Source: Escherichia coli (GTDB lineage Bacteria; Pseudomonadota; Gammaproteobacteria; Enterobacterales; Enterobacteriaceae). Taken from it: DNA of 64,000 nt. This document shows, in pieces, positions 38,723 to 54,814 of this stretch. The position numbers and the translations under genes were made by a program. The notes beneath the pieces are model-generated. The model was not told the DNA's origin, made no database searches, and was given only the letters and a program-made list of their open reading frames with translations. Positions within the stretch are counted from its first letter, which is position 1; each line of letters begins with the position of its first letter. The DNA lies in NCBI RefSeq assembly GCF_036507355.1, contig NZ_AP027877.1; one strand, 5' to 3'.

Positions 38723-38920
38723 AATTCTATTTTGCCAGGCTAACCAGTAAAAAGCGTCTCGCCAGAGTTGATTTTGTTCAATAAGCGTAATGGTTTGTTT
38801 GGCTGGTAGATGATATCCCGTACAATTTCCTTCTGATATTAATTTGTATGGTATATCGTTTTTCAGGTGATGCTGCCAACTTACTGATTTAGTGTATGAT
38901 GGTGTTTTTGAGGTGCTCCA

Positions 38921-39196
38921 GTGGCTTCTGTTTCTATCAGCTGTCCCTCCTGTTCAGCTACTGACGGGGTGGTGCGTAACGGCAAAAGCACCGCCGGACA
39001 TCAGCGCTATCTCTGCTCTCACTGCCGTAAAACATGGCAACTGCAGTTCACTTACACCGCTTCTCAACCCGGTACGCACCAGAAAATCATTGATATGGCC
39101 ATGAATGGCGTTGGATGCCGGGCAACAGCCCGCATTATGGGCGTTGGCCTCAACACGATTTTACGTCACTTAAAAAACTCAGGCCGCAGTCGGTAA
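38921..39196 (+). CDS. insA: IS1 protein InsA
   Basis: Identical to the InsA of the other IS1 copy. Confidence 0.95.
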
Positions 39197-39618
39197 CCTC
39201 GCGCATACAGCCGGGCAGTGACGTCATCGTCTGCGCGGAAATGGACGAACAGTGGGGCTATGTCGGGGCTAAATCGCGCCAGCGCTGGCTGTTTTACGCG
39301 TATGACAGGCTCCGGAAGACGGTTGTTGCGCACGTATTCGGTGAACGCACGATGGCGACGCTGGGGCGTCTTATGAGCCTGCTGTCACCCTTTGACGTGG
39401 TGATATGGATGACGGATGGCTGGCCGCTGTATGAATCCCGCCTGAAGGGAAAGCTGCACGTAATCAGCAAGCGATATACGCAGCGAATTGAGCGGCATAA
39501 CCTGAATCTGAGGCAGCACCTGGCACGGCTGGGACGGAAGTCGCTGTCGTTCTCAAAATCGGTGGAGCTGCATGACAAAGTCATCGGGCATTATCTGAAC
39601 ATAAAACACTATCAATAA
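39115..39618 (+). CDS. insB: IS1 transposase InsB
   Basis: Identical to the InsB of the other IS1 copy. Confidence 0.93.
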
Positions 39619-39821
39619 GTTGGAGTCATTACCCGTTTTTCATTAAACCATCAGCCAGCCCCATAATATAAGGAGCCTGGGTAATACCGATAAGTACGTT
39701 TTCTTCTCTACGCAGAGAGATAACGCCCTCTAAAATAACGAAAGTATCTTCGCTATTGACATCACTGGAAAATATAACTTGCTTTTCATTATTAAACTCG
39801 AAGCGCGTACCGTATCTGGAC

Positions 39822-40132: not shown

Positions 40133-40150
40133 TGAATCGCCACGGATAAT

Positions 40151-40963
40151 CTAGACACTTCCGAGCCGTTGATAATACTGGTTTTCATATTCTGTCGGTG
40201 ACATCTGATCGCTGGAACCATGCCGACGCTTACTGTTATAAAACATTTCGATGTAATCAAAAATATCGCTGCGGGCTTCTTCCCGCGTTCCGTAGATCTT
40301 TTTCTTTATCCGTTCGCGTTTCAACAACTGGAAAAAGCTTTCTGCAACCGCATTATCATGGCAGTTACCGCGACGGCTCATGCTGCCATCCAGGCCGTGT
40401 GATTTCAGGAACGACTGCCACTCATGGCTTGTGTACTGACTGCCCTGATCCGAATGAACCAGCACCTGTTTTTGGGGATTACGGCGCCATACAGCCATCA
40501 GCAGTGCGTTCAGGACAATGTCCTTTGTCATCCGGGATTGCATGGACCAGCCGATAATTTTGCGTGAGAACAGATCAACAACCACGGCAAGATACAGCCA
40601 GCCTTCGTGGGTCCTGATGTAGGTTATGTCCGTTACCCAACGCTTATCCGGAGCATCCGGATTGAACTGTCGCTGGAGCCTGTTGGGCGACACGATACTG
40701 GCCTCGCCTTTACGTGCCCGCGGGCTCCGGTATCCGACCTGAGCCTTTATCCCGACACGTTTCATCAGTCGCCAGACTCTGTTCACTCCGCACTGTTGCC
40801 CGCTGTCCCGCAGATCCAGATGGATTTTGCGATAACCATAGACGCATCCCGATTCCAGCCAGAACTGTTTAATCTGCCCTGTCAGCCTCAGGTCTGCCTG
40901 ATGGCGTTGTGAATGCGGCTGCTGAAGCCAGGCGTAAAAACCACTGGGATGAACATCCAGCAC
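40151..40963 (-). CDS. IS3-family transposase OrfB (DDE catalytic domain)
   Basis: 270-aa ORF with DITYI...WLYLAVVVDLFSRKIIGW, HSDQGSQYTS and ...DNAVAESFFQLLKRE motifs characteristic of IS3-family integrase core. Confidence 0.9.
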   Translation of the reverse strand: MLDVHPSGFYAWLQQPHSQRHQADLRLTGQIKQFWLESGCVYGYRKIHLDLRDSGQQCGVNRVWRLMKRVGIKAQVGYRSPRARKGEASIVSPNRLQRQFNPDAPDKRWVTDITYIRTHEGWLYLAVVVDLFSRKIIGWSMQSRMTKDIVLNALLMAVWRRNPQKQVLVHSDQGSQYTSHEWQSFLKSHGLDGSMSRRGNCHDNAVAESFFQLLKRERIKKKIYGTREEARSDIFDYIEMFYNSKRRHGSSDQMSPTEYENQYYQRLGSV

Positions 40964-41019
40964 CCGACAGAGCAGGCGAACAGGCCAGCAACAGGTGTTG
41001 TCACGGATAAAGGCGTACC

Positions 41020-41298
41020 TCAGTCGGACAGCTTTGCGAAGTACGCCGCGGCTTTTTTTAATATGTCCCGTTCGTCGGTAACCCGCTTCAGCTCTTTCTG
41101 GAGACGGCGGATCTCGGCCTGAGCATCTGACTGTTCTTTATTAGCGGAAGAATCCGGACCGTACTTCTTTATCCAGGCGTAAAGGCTGTGGGTGGTGATA
41201 TCGAGACGTGTTGCAACGCTGGCAACAGAATAACCGCGATCAACAACCTGTTTGACTGCTTCAATTTTAAACTCTTCGGGATAACGCTTACCGCTCAT
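41020..41298 (-). CDS. IS3-family transposase OrfA (HTH DNA-binding, leucine zipper)
   Basis: MSGKRYPEEFKIEAVKQVVDRGYSVASVATRLDITTHSLYAWIKKY...ILKKAAAYFAKLSD. Confidence 0.9.
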   Translation of the reverse strand: MSGKRYPEEFKIEAVKQVVDRGYSVASVATRLDITTHSLYAWIKKYGPDSSANKEQSDAQAEIRRLQKELKRVTDERDILKKAAAYFAKLSD

Positions 41299-41360
41299 GG
41301 GCACCTCTCTTTAAGCCATCTTAAATGACTCTGAGGTGTCTGTTAAACCCGTGGCGATTC

Positions 41361-41699
41361 ACCATGAATCAGGGAGTTGCTGATGTTCAACTGGTTTGTT
41401 GTTCCATCAGTAAAGTCATGATTCAGGTAATATGTAGAGATAGCCCCGTTAACAGTGTCACCATTAAAGGTGGTATCGAAATCACCGTTTGTGTTGTTAT
41501 AGTAGACAAAGCCACTATAATTCACATAGTTACCATCTACAGTACCCGGTGCATCCATATTGCTCCAGTCAAGAGCAGTAGTTGGATTGTCGTAATAAGT
41601 CCAGGTGTCATAAGTAGTTGCATTAGCCTGAGAGGTGATAGCCAGAGTGCAAGCCAATGCTAATTGTGATACTACAAGTTTCTTTTTCCAGGAGTGCAT
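41361..41699 (-). pseudogene. yaiT: autotransporter N-terminal fragment (signal peptide + start of passenger domain; yaiT-like remnant) running into the IS3-family element
   Basis: MHSWKKKLVVSQLALACTLAITSQANA signal peptide followed by Thr/Asn/Tyr-rich passenger-like sequence; the last 5 codons and stop are supplied by the IS terminal repeat. Confidence 0.55.
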
Positions 41700-46719: not shown

Positions 46720-47021
46720 GATTGTCTGCTCCCCTGTCTTGTTATGGGAGCAGTATTTCGTTGCGGGTCAGTTTGATAAAGGAATTAAAAGGTCTTGTTA
46801 AGAACAAAGCGTTTTTAGAAAAAAATCGGCAATGGTTAGCGAGTTTGCGCATTTTGCGGTTTTGGCGAACGTATCCCGCCGGTTCACAAGCCAGATAATA
46901 TGTGCGCGCTCCGGCAAATTATTGCCATTTTGTTACATCCATTCCATATCTGTCGCTGGTTGATTGCCAGCGCCGCGCCGTGATGCATGATAGGAGAATT
47001 AGATAATAAGAGAAGAAAAGT

Positions 47022-47651
47022 ATGATTCGGGTAGTGCTGGTGGATGACCATGTGGTGGTGCGCTCTGGCTTCGCACAATTACTCTCTCTGGAAGACGATC
47101 TGGAGGTCATTGGTCAGTACAGTAGTGCCGCGCAGGCATGGTCGGCATTAATCCGTGATGACGTCAATGTTGCCGTCATTGATATTGCCATGCCGGACGA
47201 AAACGGCCTCAGTTTGCTTAAGCGCCTGCGTGCACAAAAACCGCAATTTCGCGCCATTATTCTTAGCATTTATGACGCGCCAACCTTTGTGCAAAGCGCG
47301 CTGGATGCCGGTGCCAGCGGGTATTTAACCAAACGCTGTGGGCCGGAAGAGTTAGTGCAGGCGGTGCGCTCGGTCGGGCTGGGCGGGCATTATCTCTGTG
47401 CCGATGCGATTCGGGCTTTACGCGGCGGCGGGCAATCCGCCCAGGCGCTGGAAATTCTCACCCCGCGAGAACGTGAAGTGTTTGATTTACTTGTCAAAGG
47501 AGACAGCGTTAAAGAGATCGCCTTTAAACTCGAACTCAGTCATAAAACGGTACATGTGCATCGCGCCAATGTGCTGGGAAAACTGAACTGCCATAGCACC
47601 ATTGAACTGGTACATTTTGCGCTCGACCACCATCTGCTGGCGGGGCATTAA
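47022..47651 (+). CDS. UhpA-like NarL/FixJ-family response regulator (paralog, not canonical uhpA)
   Basis: 209-aa ORF MIRVVLVDDHVVVRSGFAQLL...; receiver domain plus LuxR-type HTH (EIAFKLELSHKTVHVHRANVLGKL); clearly similar to but distinct from K-12 UhpA. Confidence 0.85.
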   Translation: MIRVVLVDDHVVVRSGFAQLLSLEDDLEVIGQYSSAAQAWSALIRDDVNVAVIDIAMPDENGLSLLKRLRAQKPQFRAIILSIYDAPTFVQSALDAGASGYLTKRCGPEELVQAVRSVGLGGHYLCADAIRALRGGGQSAQALEILTPREREVFDLLVKGDSVKEIAFKLELSHKTVHVHRANVLGKLNCHSTIELVHFALDHHLLAGH

Positions 47652-49192
47652 TGTCGCGCAATCTTCGTCATTGGGTGATTTCGCTGTTTATTGTGCTGGC
47701 CTGGGGAACCGGCTGGCTGATGCTGTGGACGCTCAGCTTTTATCTGACCAATAACGGTCAACAGGCGGTGTTGTTTCTCCCGCAGGGAGTTTATCTCGCC
47801 CTTGTTATTTTGCTCTCTCGCCGCTACTGGCCTGCGTTGGTGCTCCCCCCTTTGCTGATGATGTTCTGGCTCCATAGTGAACAGCTATTGAACGGTTATC
47901 TCATGCTGGCAACGCCGATTATTAGCCTGTTTCCTGTCCTCCTTGCGCAAAACTTCTGGCACCGTTTTCCACTTTACTGGCAGCGTCTGACGTTGCTGTT
48001 AGCCACTGTCACGGCAGCTTCATTGTTGAATACCGCCCTGCTCTCCCCTTTTATGTCAGGCCCAATAATGCTGCCGGGTTTGACCTCATTTACCGGCGGC
48101 GTATTACTGACGCCGTTTGTCTATCTTATCTTTGAGTTTCTGCGCCAGCAGCATCGCTACCAGCTCCTGGGACTCGATACGCATAATCCCCCCTTGCGTA
48201 CCTCTTTAATCATCTGGTGTAGCCTGTTTTTTATTATTGGTATCGGCACTCAGATGGTGCTGTCACCTGAAATTGAACGTCTGCTGTTGATCGTGGTCTT
48301 TTTGCCCAATGTGGTGATGGCGTGGAAATTTGGCTGGCAAGGTGGCGTACTCTCCGGGCTTTTGGGCAGCATGATGATCACCATCGCCCGCCAGATTGGC
48401 GTGGGCTTTAGTAACCTGGTGGAGCTGGAGATTTTCCTCGCGACCCAGGCCTTGCTGGGAATTGGCCTGGGCATTGCCATCAGTCGCCAGCAACATCTGG
48501 CGCTAAACCTGCACCATTACCGACAACGGCTGGAGGCCGAGCTGGCAGCGCGGCGGGCATTGGCGGAAAAGCTGATCCACACCGAGGAGGACACGCGAAA
48601 AAACCTGGCGCGAGAGCTGCACGACGAAATCGGTCAGAACATCACCGCCATTCAGATCCAGTCGCAACTGGTGAAGCGGGCGCGTGATCCGGCGCAAATT
48701 CAATCCGCAGCCAGCCAAATCAATGAGCTCGCCCGCCGCATTCATCTCTCCACCCGCCAATTGCTGCGCCAGTTGCGGCCTCCCGCGCTTGATGAACTGA
48801 CATTTCGCGAAGCGTTGTTGCATCTGATTAATGAATTTGCCTTTAGTGAACGCGGCATTCATTGCCAGTTTGCCTATCAACTGAACTCCACACCAGAAAA
48901 CGAAACGGTGCGCTTTACCTTGTATCGGTTATTACAGGAGTTGCTCAATAACGTCTGTAAACACGCCGAAGCCAGCGAAGTGACGATTATCCTGCGCCAG
49001 CAGGGAGAGGTATTGCATCTGGAAGTCAGCGACAACGGTGTGGGGATCGCCAGCGGGAAAATGGCCGGATTTGGCATTCAGGGGATGCGTGAGCGCGTCA
49101 GCGCCCTGGGCGGCGACTTAACGCTCGAAAAACAGCACGGCACGCGGGTAATTGTTAACTTGCCCACATTTTTGCAACAAATCGCCGGATAA
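47651..49192 (+). CDS. UhpB-like membrane sensor histidine kinase
   Basis: 513-aa ORF, N-terminal multi-TM domain, H-box ELHDEIGQNITAI, C-terminal HATPase; start overlaps regulator stop (TAATG). Confidence 0.85.
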   Translation: MSRNLRHWVISLFIVLAWGTGWLMLWTLSFYLTNNGQQAVLFLPQGVYLALVILLSRRYWPALVLPPLLMMFWLHSEQLLNGYLMLATPIISLFPVLLAQNFWHRFPLYWQRLTLLLATVTAASLLNTALLSPFMSGPIMLPGLTSFTGGVLLTPFVYLIFEFLRQQHRYQLLGLDTHNPPLRTSLIIWCSLFFIIGIGTQMVLSPEIERLLLIVVFLPNVVMAWKFGWQGGVLSGLLGSMMITIARQIGVGFSNLVELEIFLATQALLGIGLGIAISRQQHLALNLHHYRQRLEAELAARRALAEKLIHTEEDTRKNLARELHDEIGQNITAIQIQSQLVKRARDPAQIQSAASQINELARRIHLSTRQLLRQLRPPALDELTFREALLHLINEFAFSERGIHCQFAYQLNSTPENETVRFTLYRLLQELLNNVCKHAEASEVTIILRQQGEVLHLEVSDNGVGIASGKMAGFGIQGMRERVSALGGDLTLEKQHGTRVIVNLPTFLQQIAG

Positions 49193-49264
49193 CCAGGAAA
49201 AAGTCTTAGGTATCCCGGATTTTCTCTCATCCCCTTTCACTTTCATTTTCATATAGTCAGCAAC

Positions 49265-50581
49265 ATGGAGACAACCATGCACGCGCGTTCAGCGAGAGAA
49301 ATTAATCAATGCTACCGGACATTACGTCCGCGATTGCTGATGTGCATGATTATTGGCTACGCCGCATTTTATCTGACGCGAAAAAGCGTGAATTACGTCC
49401 TTCCGGCGCTACAAACCGACCTCGGACTGGATAAAGGCGACATTGGCCTGCTGGGTTCGCTGTTTTATCTCAGCTACGGATTGTCGAAATTTACCGCCGG
49501 ACTGTGGCATGACAGCCACGGACAACGCGGTTTTATGGGCGTCGGCTTGTTCGCCACCGGGTTATTGAACGTGGTGTTTGCCTTTGGCGAATCACTTACG
49601 CTTCTGCTTGTGGTCTGGACACTGAACGGTTTTTTTCAGGGCTGGGGATGGCCACCGTGTGCCCGCTTGCTGACCCACTGGTACTCACGCAATGAGCGCG
49701 GTTTCTGGTGGGGCTGCTGGAATATGTCGATCAACATTGGCGGAGCGATTATTCCGCTGATTAGCGCCTTTGCCGCCCACTGGTGGGGCTGGCAGGCCGC
49801 GATGCTGACACCGGGGATAATCAGCATGGCATTAGGGATCTGGTTAACGCTACAACTCAAAGGCACGCCCCAGGAAGAGGGATTACCGACAGTTGGTCAC
49901 TGGCGTCACGATCCGCTGGAGTTACGTCAGGAACAACAAAGTCCGCCGATGGGGCTGTGGCAAATGTTGCGCACCACCATGCTGCAAAATCCGCTGATCT
50001 GGCTACTGGGCGTCTCTTATGTACTGGTTTATGTGATCCGGATTGCGCTTAACGACTGGGGCAATATCTGGCTGACGGAAAGCCACGGTGTCAACCTGCT
50101 CAGCGCCAACGCCACGGTAATGCTGTTTGAAGTGGGCGGCTTACTCGGCGCGTTATTTGCCGGATGGGGATCGGATTTGCTGTTTAGCGGGCAACGAGCG
50201 CCAATGATTTTGCTGTTCACGTTGGGGTTGATGGTGTCAGTCGCCGCACTGTGGCTGGCACCGGTTCATCACTACGCTCTGCTGGCAGTGTGCTTTTTTA
50301 CCGTGGGCTTTTTCGTCTTTGGCCCACAAATGCTGATTGGACTTGCGGCGGTGGAGTGTGGGCACAAAGCTGCGGCGGGTTCAATCACCGGATTTCTCGG
50401 CCTGTTCGCTTACCTTGGCGCGGCGCTGGCAGGCTGGCCGCTGTCGCTGGTCATCGAACGCTACGGCTGGCCGGGAATGTTCAGTTTACTCTCGGTCGCC
50501 GCAGTACTTATGGGTTTACTGCTGATGCCGTTACTGATGGCGGGCATCACCACCACTCACGCTCGAAGGATAAAACAATGA
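49265..50581 (+). CDS. UhpC-like MFS membrane sensor/transporter
   Basis: 438-aa 12-TM MFS ORF resembling UhpC/UhpT organophosphate:phosphate antiporter family. Confidence 0.8.
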   Translation: METTMHARSAREINQCYRTLRPRLLMCMIIGYAAFYLTRKSVNYVLPALQTDLGLDKGDIGLLGSLFYLSYGLSKFTAGLWHDSHGQRGFMGVGLFATGLLNVVFAFGESLTLLLVVWTLNGFFQGWGWPPCARLLTHWYSRNERGFWWGCWNMSINIGGAIIPLISAFAAHWWGWQAAMLTPGIISMALGIWLTLQLKGTPQEEGLPTVGHWRHDPLELRQEQQSPPMGLWQMLRTTMLQNPLIWLLGVSYVLVYVIRIALNDWGNIWLTESHGVNLLSANATVMLFEVGGLLGALFAGWGSDLLFSGQRAPMILLFTLGLMVSVAALWLAPVHHYALLAVCFFTVGFFVFGPQMLIGLAAVECGHKAAAGSITGFLGLFAYLGAALAGWPLSLVIERYGWPGMFSLLSVAAVLMGLLLMPLLMAGITTTHARRIKQ

Positions 50582-51609
50582 AAATGACCTTTACCTCTAC
50601 TCTGATTGCTTCTGCCGTTGCGCTGGCGACTTTAACGGGTGCCGCGCAGGCAAAAGGCCGGCTGGTGGTCTATTGCAGCGCCACCAATGAAATGTGTGAG
50701 GCCGAAACCAAAGCGTTTGGCGAGAAATATGATGTAAAAACCTCGTTTATCCGCAACGGTTCCGGAAGCACCCTGGCAAAAGTCGATGCTGAAAAGAAAA
50801 ACCCCCAGGCTGACGTCTGGTACGGCGGCACTTTAGACCCGCAATCGCAGGCTGGCGAGATGGGCCTGCTACAGGCGTATAAATCCCCTAACCTTGAGCA
50901 GATCATGGAGAAATTCCGCGATCCGGCAAAAGTGAAAGGGAATCTGTCCTCTGCCGTTTATGTGGGGATCCTCGGTTTTGGCGTAAACACCGATCGTCTG
51001 AAAGAGAAAAACCTGCCGGTGCCGAAGTGCTGGAAAGATCTCACCAAACCGGAATATAAAGGCGAAATTCAAATTGCCGATCCGCAAAGTTCCGGTACTG
51101 CCTACACCGCCCTGGCTACTTTTGCGCAGCTGTGGGGGGAAGATCAGGCCTTTGATTATCTAAAACAACTGAACGCCAACGTCTCTCAGTACACCAAATC
51201 AGGCATAGCCCCGGCACGTAACGCCGCCCGTGGCGAAACGGCGATTGGTATTGGCTTCCTGCATGACTACTCGCTGGAAAAAGAACAGGGCGCGCCGCTG
51301 GAGTTGATTTCCCCGTGTGAAGGTACAGGCTACGAAATTGGCGGCGTCAGCATTCTGAAAGGCGCGCGCAACCTCGACAACGCCAAACTGTTTGTGGACT
51401 GGGTATTATCAAAAGAAGCGCAGGAACTGGCATGGAAGAAAGGGAAGTCTTATCAGATCCTGACCAATACCACCGCCGAAACGTCGCCAAACTCACTGAA
51501 GCTCGACGACCTGAAATTAATCAACTACGACATGGACAAATACGGTTCCACGGATGTTCGTAAGGCATTGATTAATAAATGGGTTAGCGAAGTAAAAATG
51601 GGTAAATAA
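50578..51609 (+). CDS. afuA: periplasmic substrate-binding protein of AfuA/FbpA family (ABC importer; likely sugar-phosphate rather than ferric iron)
   Basis: 343-aa product with signal peptide MKMTFTSTLIASAVALATLTGAAQA; ATG overlaps uhpC-like stop (ATGA); followed by two-domain permease and ATPase. Confidence 0.7.
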   Translation: MKMTFTSTLIASAVALATLTGAAQAKGRLVVYCSATNEMCEAETKAFGEKYDVKTSFIRNGSGSTLAKVDAEKKNPQADVWYGGTLDPQSQAGEMGLLQAYKSPNLEQIMEKFRDPAKVKGNLSSAVYVGILGFGVNTDRLKEKNLPVPKCWKDLTKPEYKGEIQIADPQSSGTAYTALATFAQLWGEDQAFDYLKQLNANVSQYTKSGIAPARNAARGETAIGIGFLHDYSLEKEQGAPLELISPCEGTGYEIGGVSILKGARNLDNAKLFVDWVLSKEAQELAWKKGKSYQILTNTTAETSPNSLKLDDLKLINYDMDKYGSTDVRKALINKWVSEVKMGK

Positions 51610-51677: not shown

Positions 51678-53756
51678 ATGTCACAGACACTTGCACTCCA
51701 TCCCGTGAAAAAGCGGGATGCGATTTTCCTTTGGGTTTTGCTGGGCTGGCTGGCATTTATACTGTTGCCGAGCTGGAGCCTCGATTATGGCCTGCTGGAG
51801 TCCACGAGTGATGAGATCCTCGAGGCTTATGGCTGGTCGCATTTTAATATCAGCTGGCTGTGGTATTTGTTACCGAGTCTGTTGCTGGTTCGCCCGTTTC
51901 GTGAGGCCACACGCGAACAGCGTAGTCGTCATTATTTTGATGCCGGCTGGGCATTGCTCTGTATGGCGTTTATCGTCATCAGCGCCACCGTGGTTGGACG
52001 CGGTTTAGGCTACGCCGCCATCGTGCTGTTTGTCGAACTAGGCGCGATTATGACGCTGGCCTTAACCCGCCTCGAATGGCTGGGTGGCGACCGCTTCGTG
52101 ATCGGCTCACTGATTGCGATTGTGGCGCTGATTGGCATTTTTATCGTCTGGCCGAGCATCGCCATTTTTATCCCGATGTTCACCAACGACGCGGGAGAGT
52201 TCGCCCCGCTGGCGTTTATGACCGTGCTCTCGCAGGCACATATTGTTCAGGTGATCGTCAACTCTATCGTCTTGTCGATAGCGGTGGGGATAGGCTGTAC
52301 TTTCTTCGGCCTGGTGCTGGCGATTTATACCACGCGCATCGCTAAACGCAGCGCCATTATTGGTCGCATCTTTTCCATTTTGCCCATCGTTACGCCACCG
52401 TTTGTGGTCGGCTTAGGCGTGACGCTCATGATGGGGCGCTCCGGCTATGTTACGGAATTTATGGTGGAGTGGTTTGGGCTGACCAACACCAACTGGCTGT
52501 ACGGTTTTACCGGGATCTGGCTGGCACAGGTTCTGGCATTCACGCCAATGGCATTTATGATCCTCGACGGGGCCATTAAAACCATTCATCCCTCGCTGGA
52601 AGAGGCCTCCTACACCCTGCGCGCCAGCCGCTGGCAAACCTTTAACGGCGTGTTTGTGCCGTTGTTGAAGCCCGCACTCGCCAATGCCTTTTTAATCGTC
52701 GTGGTACAGTCACTGGCTGATTTCAGTAACCCGCTGGTACTTGGCGGTAACTTCGACGTACTGGCGACGCAAATTTACTTCTATATTACCGGCTCGCAGC
52801 TGGATTATCAGGCCGCCAGCACCCTTGGCGCTTTCCTGCTGCTGTTCTCGCTGCTGGTGTTCTGCATCCAGTATATGTGGATTGGTAAACGCTCTTACGT
52901 CACGGTTTCCGGCAAATCCTACCGTGGCGACGTCCAGCCGCTACCGGTCACCCTGGTGTGGAGCGTGGTCGCCATACTTGCGATATGGATTGCCTTTAAC
53001 GCCCTGCTCTACGGCAGCATTTTCTACGGCAGCTTCACGGTGAACTGGGGCGTGGACTACACCCTGACGCTGGATAACTTTATCAAGCTATTTGGTCAGG
53101 GAATGAGCGACGGCGCCTGGCCTTCACTGCTGGATACCCTGCTCTACGCCGGGATTGCCGCTCCCATTACCGCTATCTTTGGCCTGCTCATCGCCTGGGT
53201 GGTGGTGCGTCAACAATTCAAAGGCAAAAAGACCATCGAGTTCACCACCATGCTGTGCTTTGCCGTACCGGGTACGGTGGCGGGCGTTTCGTATATTCTT
53301 GCCTTTAACAGCGCTCCGGTTTATCTCACCGGAACGGCGGCAATTGTGATTATCTCGATGGTGATGCGTAACGTTCCGGTGGGTATTCGCGCCGGGATTG
53401 CGGGTCTGGGGCAGATCGACAAATCGCTGGATGAAGCCTCACTCAGCCTGCGCGCGGGTTCACTGCGAACCATTACGCACATTTTACTGCCGCTGCTGCG
53501 CCCGGCCATTCTCTCGGCCCTGATCTACAGCTTTGTGCGGGCCATCACGACGGTCAGCGCCATCGTCTTTCTCGTCACGCCGGACACCCGCGTGGCAACC
53601 GCCTACATTCTTAACCGCGTTGAAGACGGCGAATATGGCGTAGCCATCGCCTATGGTTCGATTCTGATCGTGGTGATGCTGGCGATTATTTTCCTCTTTG
53701 ACTGGCTGATCGGAGAAGCTCGTATCTCCCGTTCTAAAGCCAAAAACCAGGCGTAA
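51678..53756 (+). CDS. afuB: ABC transporter permease, duplicated 6-TM domains (AfuB/FbpB type)
   Basis: ~692-aa polytopic protein with two permease repeats; start may be up to 17 codons upstream. Confidence 0.7.
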
Positions 53757-54814
53757 TGGAGCGCACTATGAGTCAGAAAAATTTTGTTGAACTGCGCAAC
53801 GTCACTAAACGATTCGGCAGTAATACGGTTATCGACAATATCAATCTCACCATTCCACAAGGGCAAATGGTGACGCTGCTCGGTCCTTCCGGCTGTGGCA
53901 AAACCACCATTTTGCGTCTGGTTGCCGGGCTGGAAAAACCGAGCGAAGGGCAAATTTTTATTGATGGCGAAGATGTCACGCATCGTTCCATTCAACAGCG
54001 CGATATCTGCATGGTGTTTCAGTCATACGCTCTGTTCCCGCATATGTCGCTGGGTGAAAACGTTGGCTACGGGCTGAAGATGCTTGGCGTGTCGCGTAGC
54101 GAAGTGAAACAGCGGGTGAAGGAGGCGCTGGCAATGGTGGATCTGGAAGGCTTCGAGGACCGCTATGTCGATCAGATTTCCGGTGGTCAGCAACAGCGTG
54201 TGGCACTGGCCCGCGCGTTGATCCTCAAGCCAAAGGTGCTGCTGTTTGATGAGCCGTTAAGTAACCTCGATGCCAACCTGCGCCGCAGTATGCGCGATAA
54301 GATCCGCGAGCTGCAAAAGCAGTTTAATATCACGTCGCTCTACGTCACTCACGATCAAAGTGAAGCTTTCGCGGTGTCCGACACTGTGCTGGTGATGAAT
54401 AAAGGTCACATCATGCAGATTGGCTCACCGCAGGATCTCTATCGTCAGCCAGCCTCCCGATTTATGGCAAGTTTTATGGGCGACGCCAACCTGTTCCCGG
54501 CGAACTTTAGCGAAGAGTATGTCGATATCTACGGTTATCGCCTGCCGCGCGCGGCGCATTTCCCGGCGCAAGGTAGCGGCACCGTCGGCGTTCGCCCGGA
54601 AGCCATCACCTTAAGCAATCACGGCGAAGAGAGTCAGCGTTGTGTTATTCGCCATGTCGCCTACATGGGGCCGCAGTACGAAGTGACCGTAGAGTGGCAT
54701 GGACAGGAGATTTTATTACAAGTAAACGCCACCCGTTTACAGCCCGATATTGGTGAGCACTATTACCTCGAAATCCATCCTTACGGGATGTTTGTTTTAG
54801 CGGATGCGGCATAA
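53756..54814 (+). CDS. afuC: ABC transporter ATP-binding protein (AfuC/FbpC/PotA type)
   Basis: Walker [10 protein letters not shown], signature [15 protein letters not shown], Walker [12 protein letters not shown]; start overlaps afuB stop (TAATG). Confidence 0.8.

Follow-up and report, generated by a model that had tools for sequence, protein, structure and literature searches.

The three-part sensor UhpABC of Escherichia coli K-12 has the phosphate antiporter UhpT as its output, and according to a review the uhpT promoter carries strong and weak UhpA sites next to one another, preceded upstream by one CRP site (PMC4790336). The ATP-binding cassette (ABC) importer AfuABC of Actinobacillus pleuropneumoniae and Citrobacter rodentium imports glucose-6-P, fructose-6-P, and sedoheptulose-7-P, and it helps C. 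rodentium to colonise the gut (Sit et al. 2015, PMC4546632). In a 64,000-nucleotide stretch of E. coli DNA (contig NZ_AP027877.1 of assembly GCF_036507355.1; this whole stretch is called the window below), genes encoding UhpA-, UhpB-, and UhpC-like proteins are followed by afuABC, and the initial annotation of this DNA proposed that an ABC importer takes the place of UhpT as the output of the Uhp-like system. We report that the junction between the kinase gene and the uhpC-like gene carries a conserved promoter-like module, from which the regulator probably activates the uhpC-like gene and afuABC as a transcription unit of their own.

The cassette itself is already known, both as O-island 20 (OI-20) of enterohaemorrhagic E. 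coli (EHEC) and in Vibrio cholerae; what is new here is the location and the architecture of the probable output promoter. In V. cholerae the operon (VCA0682–VCA0687) reportedly responds to hexose-6-P by induction, with VCA0682, the UhpA homologue, as mediator. Our literature search on VCA0682–0687 returned nothing on the regulator, and the function of the transporter is confirmed in a paper that cites Moisi et al. (2013). In EHEC OI-20, the genes are fusR (Z0463), fusK (Z0462), z0461, and afuABC (Z0460–Z0458), which correspond to ECs_0418–0413 of the O157:H7 strain Sakai and form the same locus as in the window. The island DNA of the window is 98.9% identical to that of Sakai, lies at the same site, from tauA to frmR, and has an identical kinase/uhpC gap. 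The cassette proteins are 99–100% identical to those of Sakai (regulator, 99.0% to ECs_0418; kinase, 99.2% to ECs_0417; UhpC-like protein, 100% to ECs_0416). Because of this near-identity at the same site, the regulator and the kinase are FusR and FusK, and the UhpC-like protein is the product of z0461.

The sensor pair of EHEC is widely cited as detecting fucose and as controlling virulence genes. According to PMC6199705, which summarises Pacheco 2012, FusKR represses z0461 and the fuc genes, and a review (PMC11644481) describes fucose-dependent autophosphorylation of FusK and binding of FusR to the ler promoter. Sit et al. 2015 noted the proximity of AfuABC to FusKR and said nothing further on a link (PMC4546632). 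Our literature search found no paper that linked FusKR to the regulation of afuABC or that tested glucose-6-P with z0461 present, and none that reported a promoter or a regulator site in the kinase/uhpC junction of EHEC OI-20.

UhpABC paralogues next to AfuABC

All six genes lie on the plus strand, and the open reading frame calls agreed with the initial annotation in placing UhpA-, UhpB-, and UhpC-like genes before afuABC, with no uhpT. When K-12 UhpT was compared by tblastn with the window, it matched only the uhpC-like gene (30% identity). Canonical uhpT is also present in EHEC strains that carry the island (PMC5352689). The regulator gene (47022–47651) encodes a receiver domain and a LuxR/GerE helix-turn-helix (Pfam Response_reg and GerE). 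Its product shares 47–48% identity with K-12 UhpA and scored 193.8 bits with the NCBIfam UhpA model NF007685, under the cutoff of 258, which leaves it outside the UhpA equivalog. The kinase gene (47651–49192) encodes a MASE1 sensor histidine kinase with the Pfam architecture MASE1-HisKA_3-HATPase_c that is common to UhpB. This protein shares 35% identity with K-12 UhpB and, with 381.1 bits for model NF008649 (cutoff 408), also falls outside the corresponding equivalog. The uhpC-like gene (49277–50581, with its first in-frame ATG at 49265) encodes a protein of the major facilitator superfamily, a probable co-sensor, which is 53% identical to K-12 UhpC. It scored 587.7 bits with the UhpC receptor model NF008661, over the cutoff of 564, and so belongs to the UhpC subfamily. 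For both the regulator and the kinase, these below-cutoff models were nevertheless the top matches. Judged from their sequences, the three proteins are paralogues of UhpA, UhpB, and UhpC, and not the canonical system itself. The stop codon of the regulator gene and the start codon of the kinase gene share 1 nt at 47651, which suggests that the sensor pair is translationally coupled, as are K-12 uhpA and uhpB.

The product of afuA (50578–51609), a periplasmic sugar-phosphate binding protein, matched the A. pleuropneumoniae AfuA structures 4r72–4r75 of the PDB (E = 1.5e-169) and also PDB entry 8x1a (E = 1.7e-173). Its H229, D230, and E253 aligned with H207, D208, and E231 of the 4r72 chain, which are the H205, D206, and E229 of the paper (an offset of 2 residues). 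The afuB gene (51678–53756 in the NCBI Prokaryotic Genome Annotation Pipeline, PGAP) encodes a fused double permease of 692 aa with two BPD_transp_1 stretches, and afuC (53768–54814) encodes an ABC ATPase (NCBIfam NF008513, 699.5 bits; Pfam ABC_tran and TOBE_2). The locus thus has the make-up of an AfuABC importer, with an AfuA homologue that carries the sugar-binding residues and, downstream of afuA, the fused permease and the ATPase; AfuB and AfuC have the same architecture as in A. pleuropneumoniae and C. rodentium. By analogy with these published orthologues, the AfuABC of this strain can be regarded as a sugar-phosphate importer.

RefSeq still names the transporter genes of the cassette as ferric or iron components (afuC as a 'ferric' transporter ATPase, fbpC). 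The top NCBIfam matches of AfuA and AfuB were 2-aminoethylphosphonate models, both under their cutoffs. The 'ferric transporter' names are historical and wrong, the published biochemistry being that of sugar-phosphate transport.

The cassette and K-12 UhpABC therefore have in common a three-part sensor of the same domain make-up and differ in their output, which is an ATP-driven ABC importer in the cassette and the phosphate antiporter UhpT in K-12. They also differ in the position of the co-sensor gene: K-12 uhpC lies within the sensor operon, whereas the uhpC-like gene lies downstream of the proposed regulated promoter. As the initial annotation had stated, its stop codon TGA (50579–50581) overlaps the ATG of afuA (50578–50580) as ATGA.

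Conservation of the six-gene arrangement

We searched for related loci with the UhpC-like protein as query, taking one genome per species. This gave 80 loci, with 68–98% identity to the query, in more than 25 genera of Enterobacterales. In all 80, as far as the contigs reach, the genes follow the order regulator, kinase, UhpC-like protein, AfuA, AfuB, AfuC, a few copies being truncated or decayed; uhpT was not found adjacent to the cassette at any of the 80. The recurrence in all related loci indicates, at the level of sequence, that the six-gene arrangement is not due to chance. The same six genes were present in one locus from Photobacterium and in one from Vibrio, which is next to nap genes and belongs to the V. 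metoecus/cholerae protein cluster. The six-gene order of the V. cholerae VCA0682–0687 system, with identical domain content, was seen in L085 and L087. The proposed rewiring to an ABC importer as output is thus supported by the paralogy with UhpA, UhpB, and UhpC and by the fixed adjacency of afuABC across more than 25 enterobacterial genera, Vibrio, and Photobacterium. In contrast to the window, a locus of the Pasteurellaceae (Gallibacterium) had afuABC alone, without Uhp-like sensor genes, so regulation must differ there.

The kinase/uhpC gap was steady, at about 70–90 bp, across the loci, while uhpC and afuA overlap by 4 bp at one extreme and are about 230 bp apart at the other. Spacers of 110–230 bp between uhpC and afuA were seen in L079, L080, and L082 (Pectobacterium), in L068, and in L085 (its positions 6889–7000), and the palindrome described below was absent from these long spacers. 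Among the decayed-looking loci, that of Citrobacter koseri (L051) had a uhpC-like gene cut short by a premature stop and an incomplete afuA, and gave no match to the kinase, and L010, L017, L043, L061, and L071 had truncated kinase or afuB matches. These loci may be pseudogenes or assembly errors.

A promoter-like module at the kinase/uhpC junction

We aligned 76 distinct sequences comprising the 3' end of the kinase gene and the gap that follows it, and we measured spacings in 83 loci, with Vibrio and Photobacterium included. Four elements stood out, all read on the plus strand. A 17-bp palindrome, CCAGGAAAAAGTCTTAG, at 49193–49209, had a mean top-base frequency of 0.93; we propose it as a candidate site for a dimer of the regulator. 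An invariant stretch, TCTCATCC, at 49225–49232, had a mean of 0.99 (each of its 8 columns conserved to 95% or more), compared with 0.63–0.71 for the intervening spacers. It lies in the −35 zone and may serve as an activator site, weak or secondary, or else as an unusual −35 element. Further downstream, the −10-like hexamer TATAGT (49252–49257), conserved as TAnnnT, predicts a transcription start at about 49264. Within the final codons of the kinase gene, a CRP-like box, TGTTAACTTGCCCACA (49153–49168), matches the CRP core TGTGA-N6-TCACA at 8 of 10 positions, and its centre (49160.5) is at about −103.5 with respect to the predicted start.

The spacing of these elements was nearly fixed. From the centre of the box to the centre of the palindrome the distance was 40.5 bp in 81 of the 83 loci, and from the latter point it was 24 bp to the start of TCTCATCC in 78 loci and 51 bp to the −10-like hexamer in 77. 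The Vibrio locus also had the CRP-like box and a palindrome, CTAGGAAATATTCCTAG, 40.5 bp apart as in the window. The arrangement of the genes around them differs: in Vibrio the palindrome is part of the terminal coding sequence of the kinase gene and the uhpC/afuA spacer is 112 bp long, compared with a palindrome after the kinase stop codon and a 4-bp overlap in the window.

The palindrome occurred once per locus, always at the kinase/uhpC junction, in 76 of the 83 loci searched for it. It was also present in Vibrio and Photobacterium, and it is perfect in Pectobacterium (CTAGGAATTATTCCTAG) and Buttiauxella (CCAGGAAAAATTCCTGG). Within the window, its pattern was found once, with 0.19 occurrences expected when one mismatch was allowed. 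No copy was present upstream of the regulator gene, either in the window, even with one mismatch, or across the 83 loci. Nor was any found in the long uhpC/afuA spacers of Vibrio and Photobacterium or at this position in any of the 83 loci. Constraint was also visible within the coding sequence. In a scan of third codon positions of all six genes in 33 diverse sequences, the most constrained eight-codon segment was 49148–49171, which holds the CRP-like box (conservation 0.97 versus a gene mean of 0.64, with a standard deviation between segments of 0.083). The same six-gene scan showed no third-position outlier at the 3' end of the uhpC-like gene, upstream of afuA.

Two other candidates were considered and rejected. 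The uhpC-like gene as the site of a separate afuA promoter was discarded, as no third-position outlier was found within that gene and no palindrome in the uhpC/afuA spacers, either of Vibrio and Photobacterium or of the 83 loci. Autoregulation through the same palindrome was discarded because of the missing copy upstream of the regulator gene, with one mismatch allowed.

The initial annotation had suggested that a UhpA-like box might lie in the 49193–49264 gap. The comparison favours this option, since a conserved palindrome starts at 49193 and belongs to a promoter-like module of fixed spacing. The means that it had recommended, a search of 46720–47021 and 49193–49264 for inverted repeats, was less successful and returned only trivial short palindromes. 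The E. coli palindrome is too asymmetric to be detected alone, and the regulator site emerged only by comparison between genera. A generic σ70 scan likewise found no promoter in the kinase/uhpC gap, although it did detect that of the regulator gene; TATAGT has no acceptable −35 element, so such a scan misses the junction promoter.

The conservation of the junction also bears on the start of the uhpC-like gene. PGAP places it at ATG 49265 (438 aa), a codon found in E. coli only. ATG 49277, used in the Sakai annotation (434 aa), is conserved across genera together with its Shine-Dalgarno sequence GGAGA (49267–49271, plus strand), of which the GGAG lies 5–6 bases before this ATG. The kinase/uhpC gap of 72 bp given by the initial annotation is therefore correct from the kinase stop codon (TAA, 49190–49192) to the first ATG (49193–49264), but the real gap is probably 84 bp (49193–49276).

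Similarity to the K-12 uhpT promoter

In the K-12 uhpC/uhpT intergenic region, we found a CRP-type sequence, CGTGA-N6-TCACC, over the uhpC stop codon, an inverted repeat, TCCAGGTTTTGCCTGGA, a second repeat, TCAGGCCTGA, and a TACAAT −10 element. The distance from the centre of the CRP site to the first base of the −10 element is 91.5 bp there and also 91.5 bp at the cassette junction, which puts the box at −103.5 in both promoters, and we take −103.5 to be the position of the CAP site of uhpT. CCAGG half-sites are found both in the cassette palindrome and in the K-12 repeat TCCAGGTTTTGCCTGGA, though 7 bp apart in the former and 5 bp apart in the latter. In K-12 the palindrome is 41 bp from the −10 element; in the cassette it is 10 bp, or one helical turn, further away (51 bp). 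Neither promoter has a good −35 element. When their C-terminal DNA-binding domains are aligned, the regulator and UhpA share the stretch KTVHVHRAN without a change, which fits with the recognition of similar CCAGG-type half-sites by the two proteins. In motif and spacing, the junction is thus consistent with an output promoter of the uhpT type, with a CRP-like site upstream, a regulator-type repeat, and no −35 element.

Proposed regulation and alternative explanations

Taken together, the synteny, the footprint at the junction, its spacing, the third-position constraint, the uniqueness of the palindrome, and the likeness to the uhpT promoter favour two transcription units, with the regulator as an activator of the uhpC-like gene and afuABC from the junction promoter, and on these sequence grounds we consider this organisation quite likely. 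The regulator and kinase genes would be transcribed from their own σ70 promoter at 46964–46991, while uhpC-like–afuA–afuB–afuC would form the output unit, driven by an activator-dependent promoter with its start at about 49264. By analogy with UhpABC, the UhpC-like protein would bind external hexose-6-phosphate and switch on the MASE1 kinase; the phosphorylated regulator would then bind the palindrome at about −63, assisted by CRP, or by a factor like it, at the box at about −103.5. What binds at each motif, where transcription starts, in which direction the regulation acts, and which signal is sensed are in this scheme inferred from the gene identities, synteny, motifs, and spacing observed. 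As the co-sensor gene would lie inside the induced operon, unlike in the canonical system, a positive feedback is predicted, in which the regulator raises the transcription of its own co-sensor as well as of the ATP-driven importer. We found no convincing terminator between the kinase and the uhpC-like genes. Basal co-sensor would therefore probably come from read-through of the upstream regulator-kinase unit, and read-through from the regulator promoter may make a basal contribution. The cassette equips enteric bacteria to import host- or microbiota-derived sugar phosphates by an ATP-driven importer.

Several observations weigh against activation from the junction. In E. coli, the palindrome has a degenerate right arm, with 4 of 7 positions symmetric, and the predicted start leaves a leader of only about 13 nt. 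The CRP-like box is invariantly TGTTA, not TGTGA, so a factor other than CRP may bind it. FusKR of EHEC is summarised in PMC6199705 as repressing z0461 and as sensing fucose, a regulation of opposite sign that answers to a different signal. Finally, in RNA sequencing of strain EDL933 in bovine gut contents, Z0459, Z0461, Z0462, and Z0463 were all increased, and this joint rise of the detected cassette genes fits one transcript as well as two.

If the published FusKR model held for the junction, the kinase would sense L-fucose without the UhpC-like protein, the phosphorylated regulator would repress z0461 and ler, the palindrome would be a repression operator, and afuABC would fall when the system is active. 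The effects on z0461 and fuc summarised in PMC6199705 and the autophosphorylation and ler binding related in PMC11644481 speak in favour of this model, and the regulator and kinase of the window are 99% identical to the Sakai proteins. We nevertheless find it unlikely, because a promoter without −35 element whose site is centred some 63 bp further upstream has the geometry of activation and not of repression, because the cassette is conserved in many non-EHEC genera, and because the linked importer takes sugar phosphates and not fucose (PMC4546632). The V. cholerae orthologue, moreover, is reportedly an activator that hexose-6-P induces. The reported FusR motif in ler, when compared by eye, also bears no convincing likeness to the palindrome. 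The conservation outside EHEC and the uhpT-like junction promoter argue that the primary job of the system is the hexose-phosphate-induced activation of its own importer operon. We tentatively go one step further, with a confidence somewhat short of even: FusK and Z0461 would form a hexose-6-phosphate sensor of the UhpB/UhpC type, z0461-afuABC would be the ancestral direct target, activated through the palindrome, and the fucose sensing and the repression of LEE and z0461 described for EHEC would be secondary, indirect, or condition-specific. If true, this would revise a widely cited model of host-signal sensing.

The initial annotation had also offered an autoregulated single uhpABC-afuABC transcript, which is the less supported of its two options. 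All six genes would in that case be transcribed from the regulator promoter, whether autoregulated or constitutive, the junction would lack a promoter of its own, and its conservation would reflect translation signals, mRNA processing, or the like. The short gaps and overlapping genes, the lack of a convincing terminator after the kinase gene, and the joint rise of the cassette genes in EDL933 are all compatible with this. It does not account for a −10-like hexamer, a palindrome, and an upstream box that are conserved at fixed spacing, nor for a conservation that reaches third codon positions inside the kinase gene. Moreover, with no palindrome in front of the regulator gene, autoregulation would have to act through another site, and we regard a single transcript as improbable. 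Still less credible is the palindrome as an RNA hairpin, acting as a terminator or as a stabiliser of the kinase mRNA end instead of as protein-binding DNA, to which we give hardly any weight. It is true that the palindrome begins one base after the kinase stop codon and that in Pectobacterium it forms a better fold than shuffled controls do (z = −3.6). However, the E. coli version folded no better than shuffles (z = −0.45) and is followed by no T-run, and for these two reasons the terminator or hairpin reading was rejected. In addition, the right arm is asymmetric and yet invariant in sequence in most Enterobacteriaceae, and the Vibrio palindrome sits within coding sequence.

Probable promoter of the regulator-kinase pair

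The cassette is flanked by tauA (minus strand) on one side and by frmR/frmA on the other. In the 302-bp region between tauA and the regulator gene (46720–47021), the promoter scan found a σ70 promoter-like sequence, TTGCCA-N16-CATGAT (46964–46991, plus strand), which is the likely promoter of the regulator-kinase pair; within it, TTGCca and GCAT.AT are shared between genera. A conserved CRP-like element (TGTTA-N6-TTCCA), TTGTTACATCCATTCCATA (46930–46948, plus strand), lies upstream, at about 60 bp from the predicted start; for this element, the alignment of 32 sequences upstream of the regulator gene gave the consensus TTttGTTAc...c.tt.CATa. The element reads TTGTTACAT-N3-TT(A/C)CATA, and the form TGTTA-N6-..CA is common to it and to the box at 49153–49168. 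One factor, or CRP, may bind both.

Distribution of the cassette

At least 80% of the 8.2-kb island was present in 518 of 5426 complete E. coli genomes (about 1 in 10), among which were bovine, equine, avian, mink, and human isolates. This is contrary to a 2024 review, which stated that FusKR is confined to EHEC O157:H7. The cassette also adjoins tauA/tauB in Citrobacter, Klebsiella, Raoultella, Enterobacter, Lelliottia, and other genera (upstream flank of L005, L009, L011, L013, L015, L017, L018, L025, L038, L040, and L046–L050). In view of this shared position, it looks like an ancestral feature of this site that most E. coli have lost, and not like a recent gain of O157.

The strain of the window is distinct from Sakai: its flanking DNA is 98.7–99.3% identical to that of Sakai, and its best matches were bovine, equine, and human isolates. 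Compared with Sakai, the window has two insertions, at 38866–39633 (768 bp, the size of IS1) and at 40133–41618 (about 1.49 kb), which flank a 499-bp segment near iprA (yaiV) and ehaB (yaiT). Matching records annotate IS1 and IS3-family transposases at these iprA/ehaB insertions.

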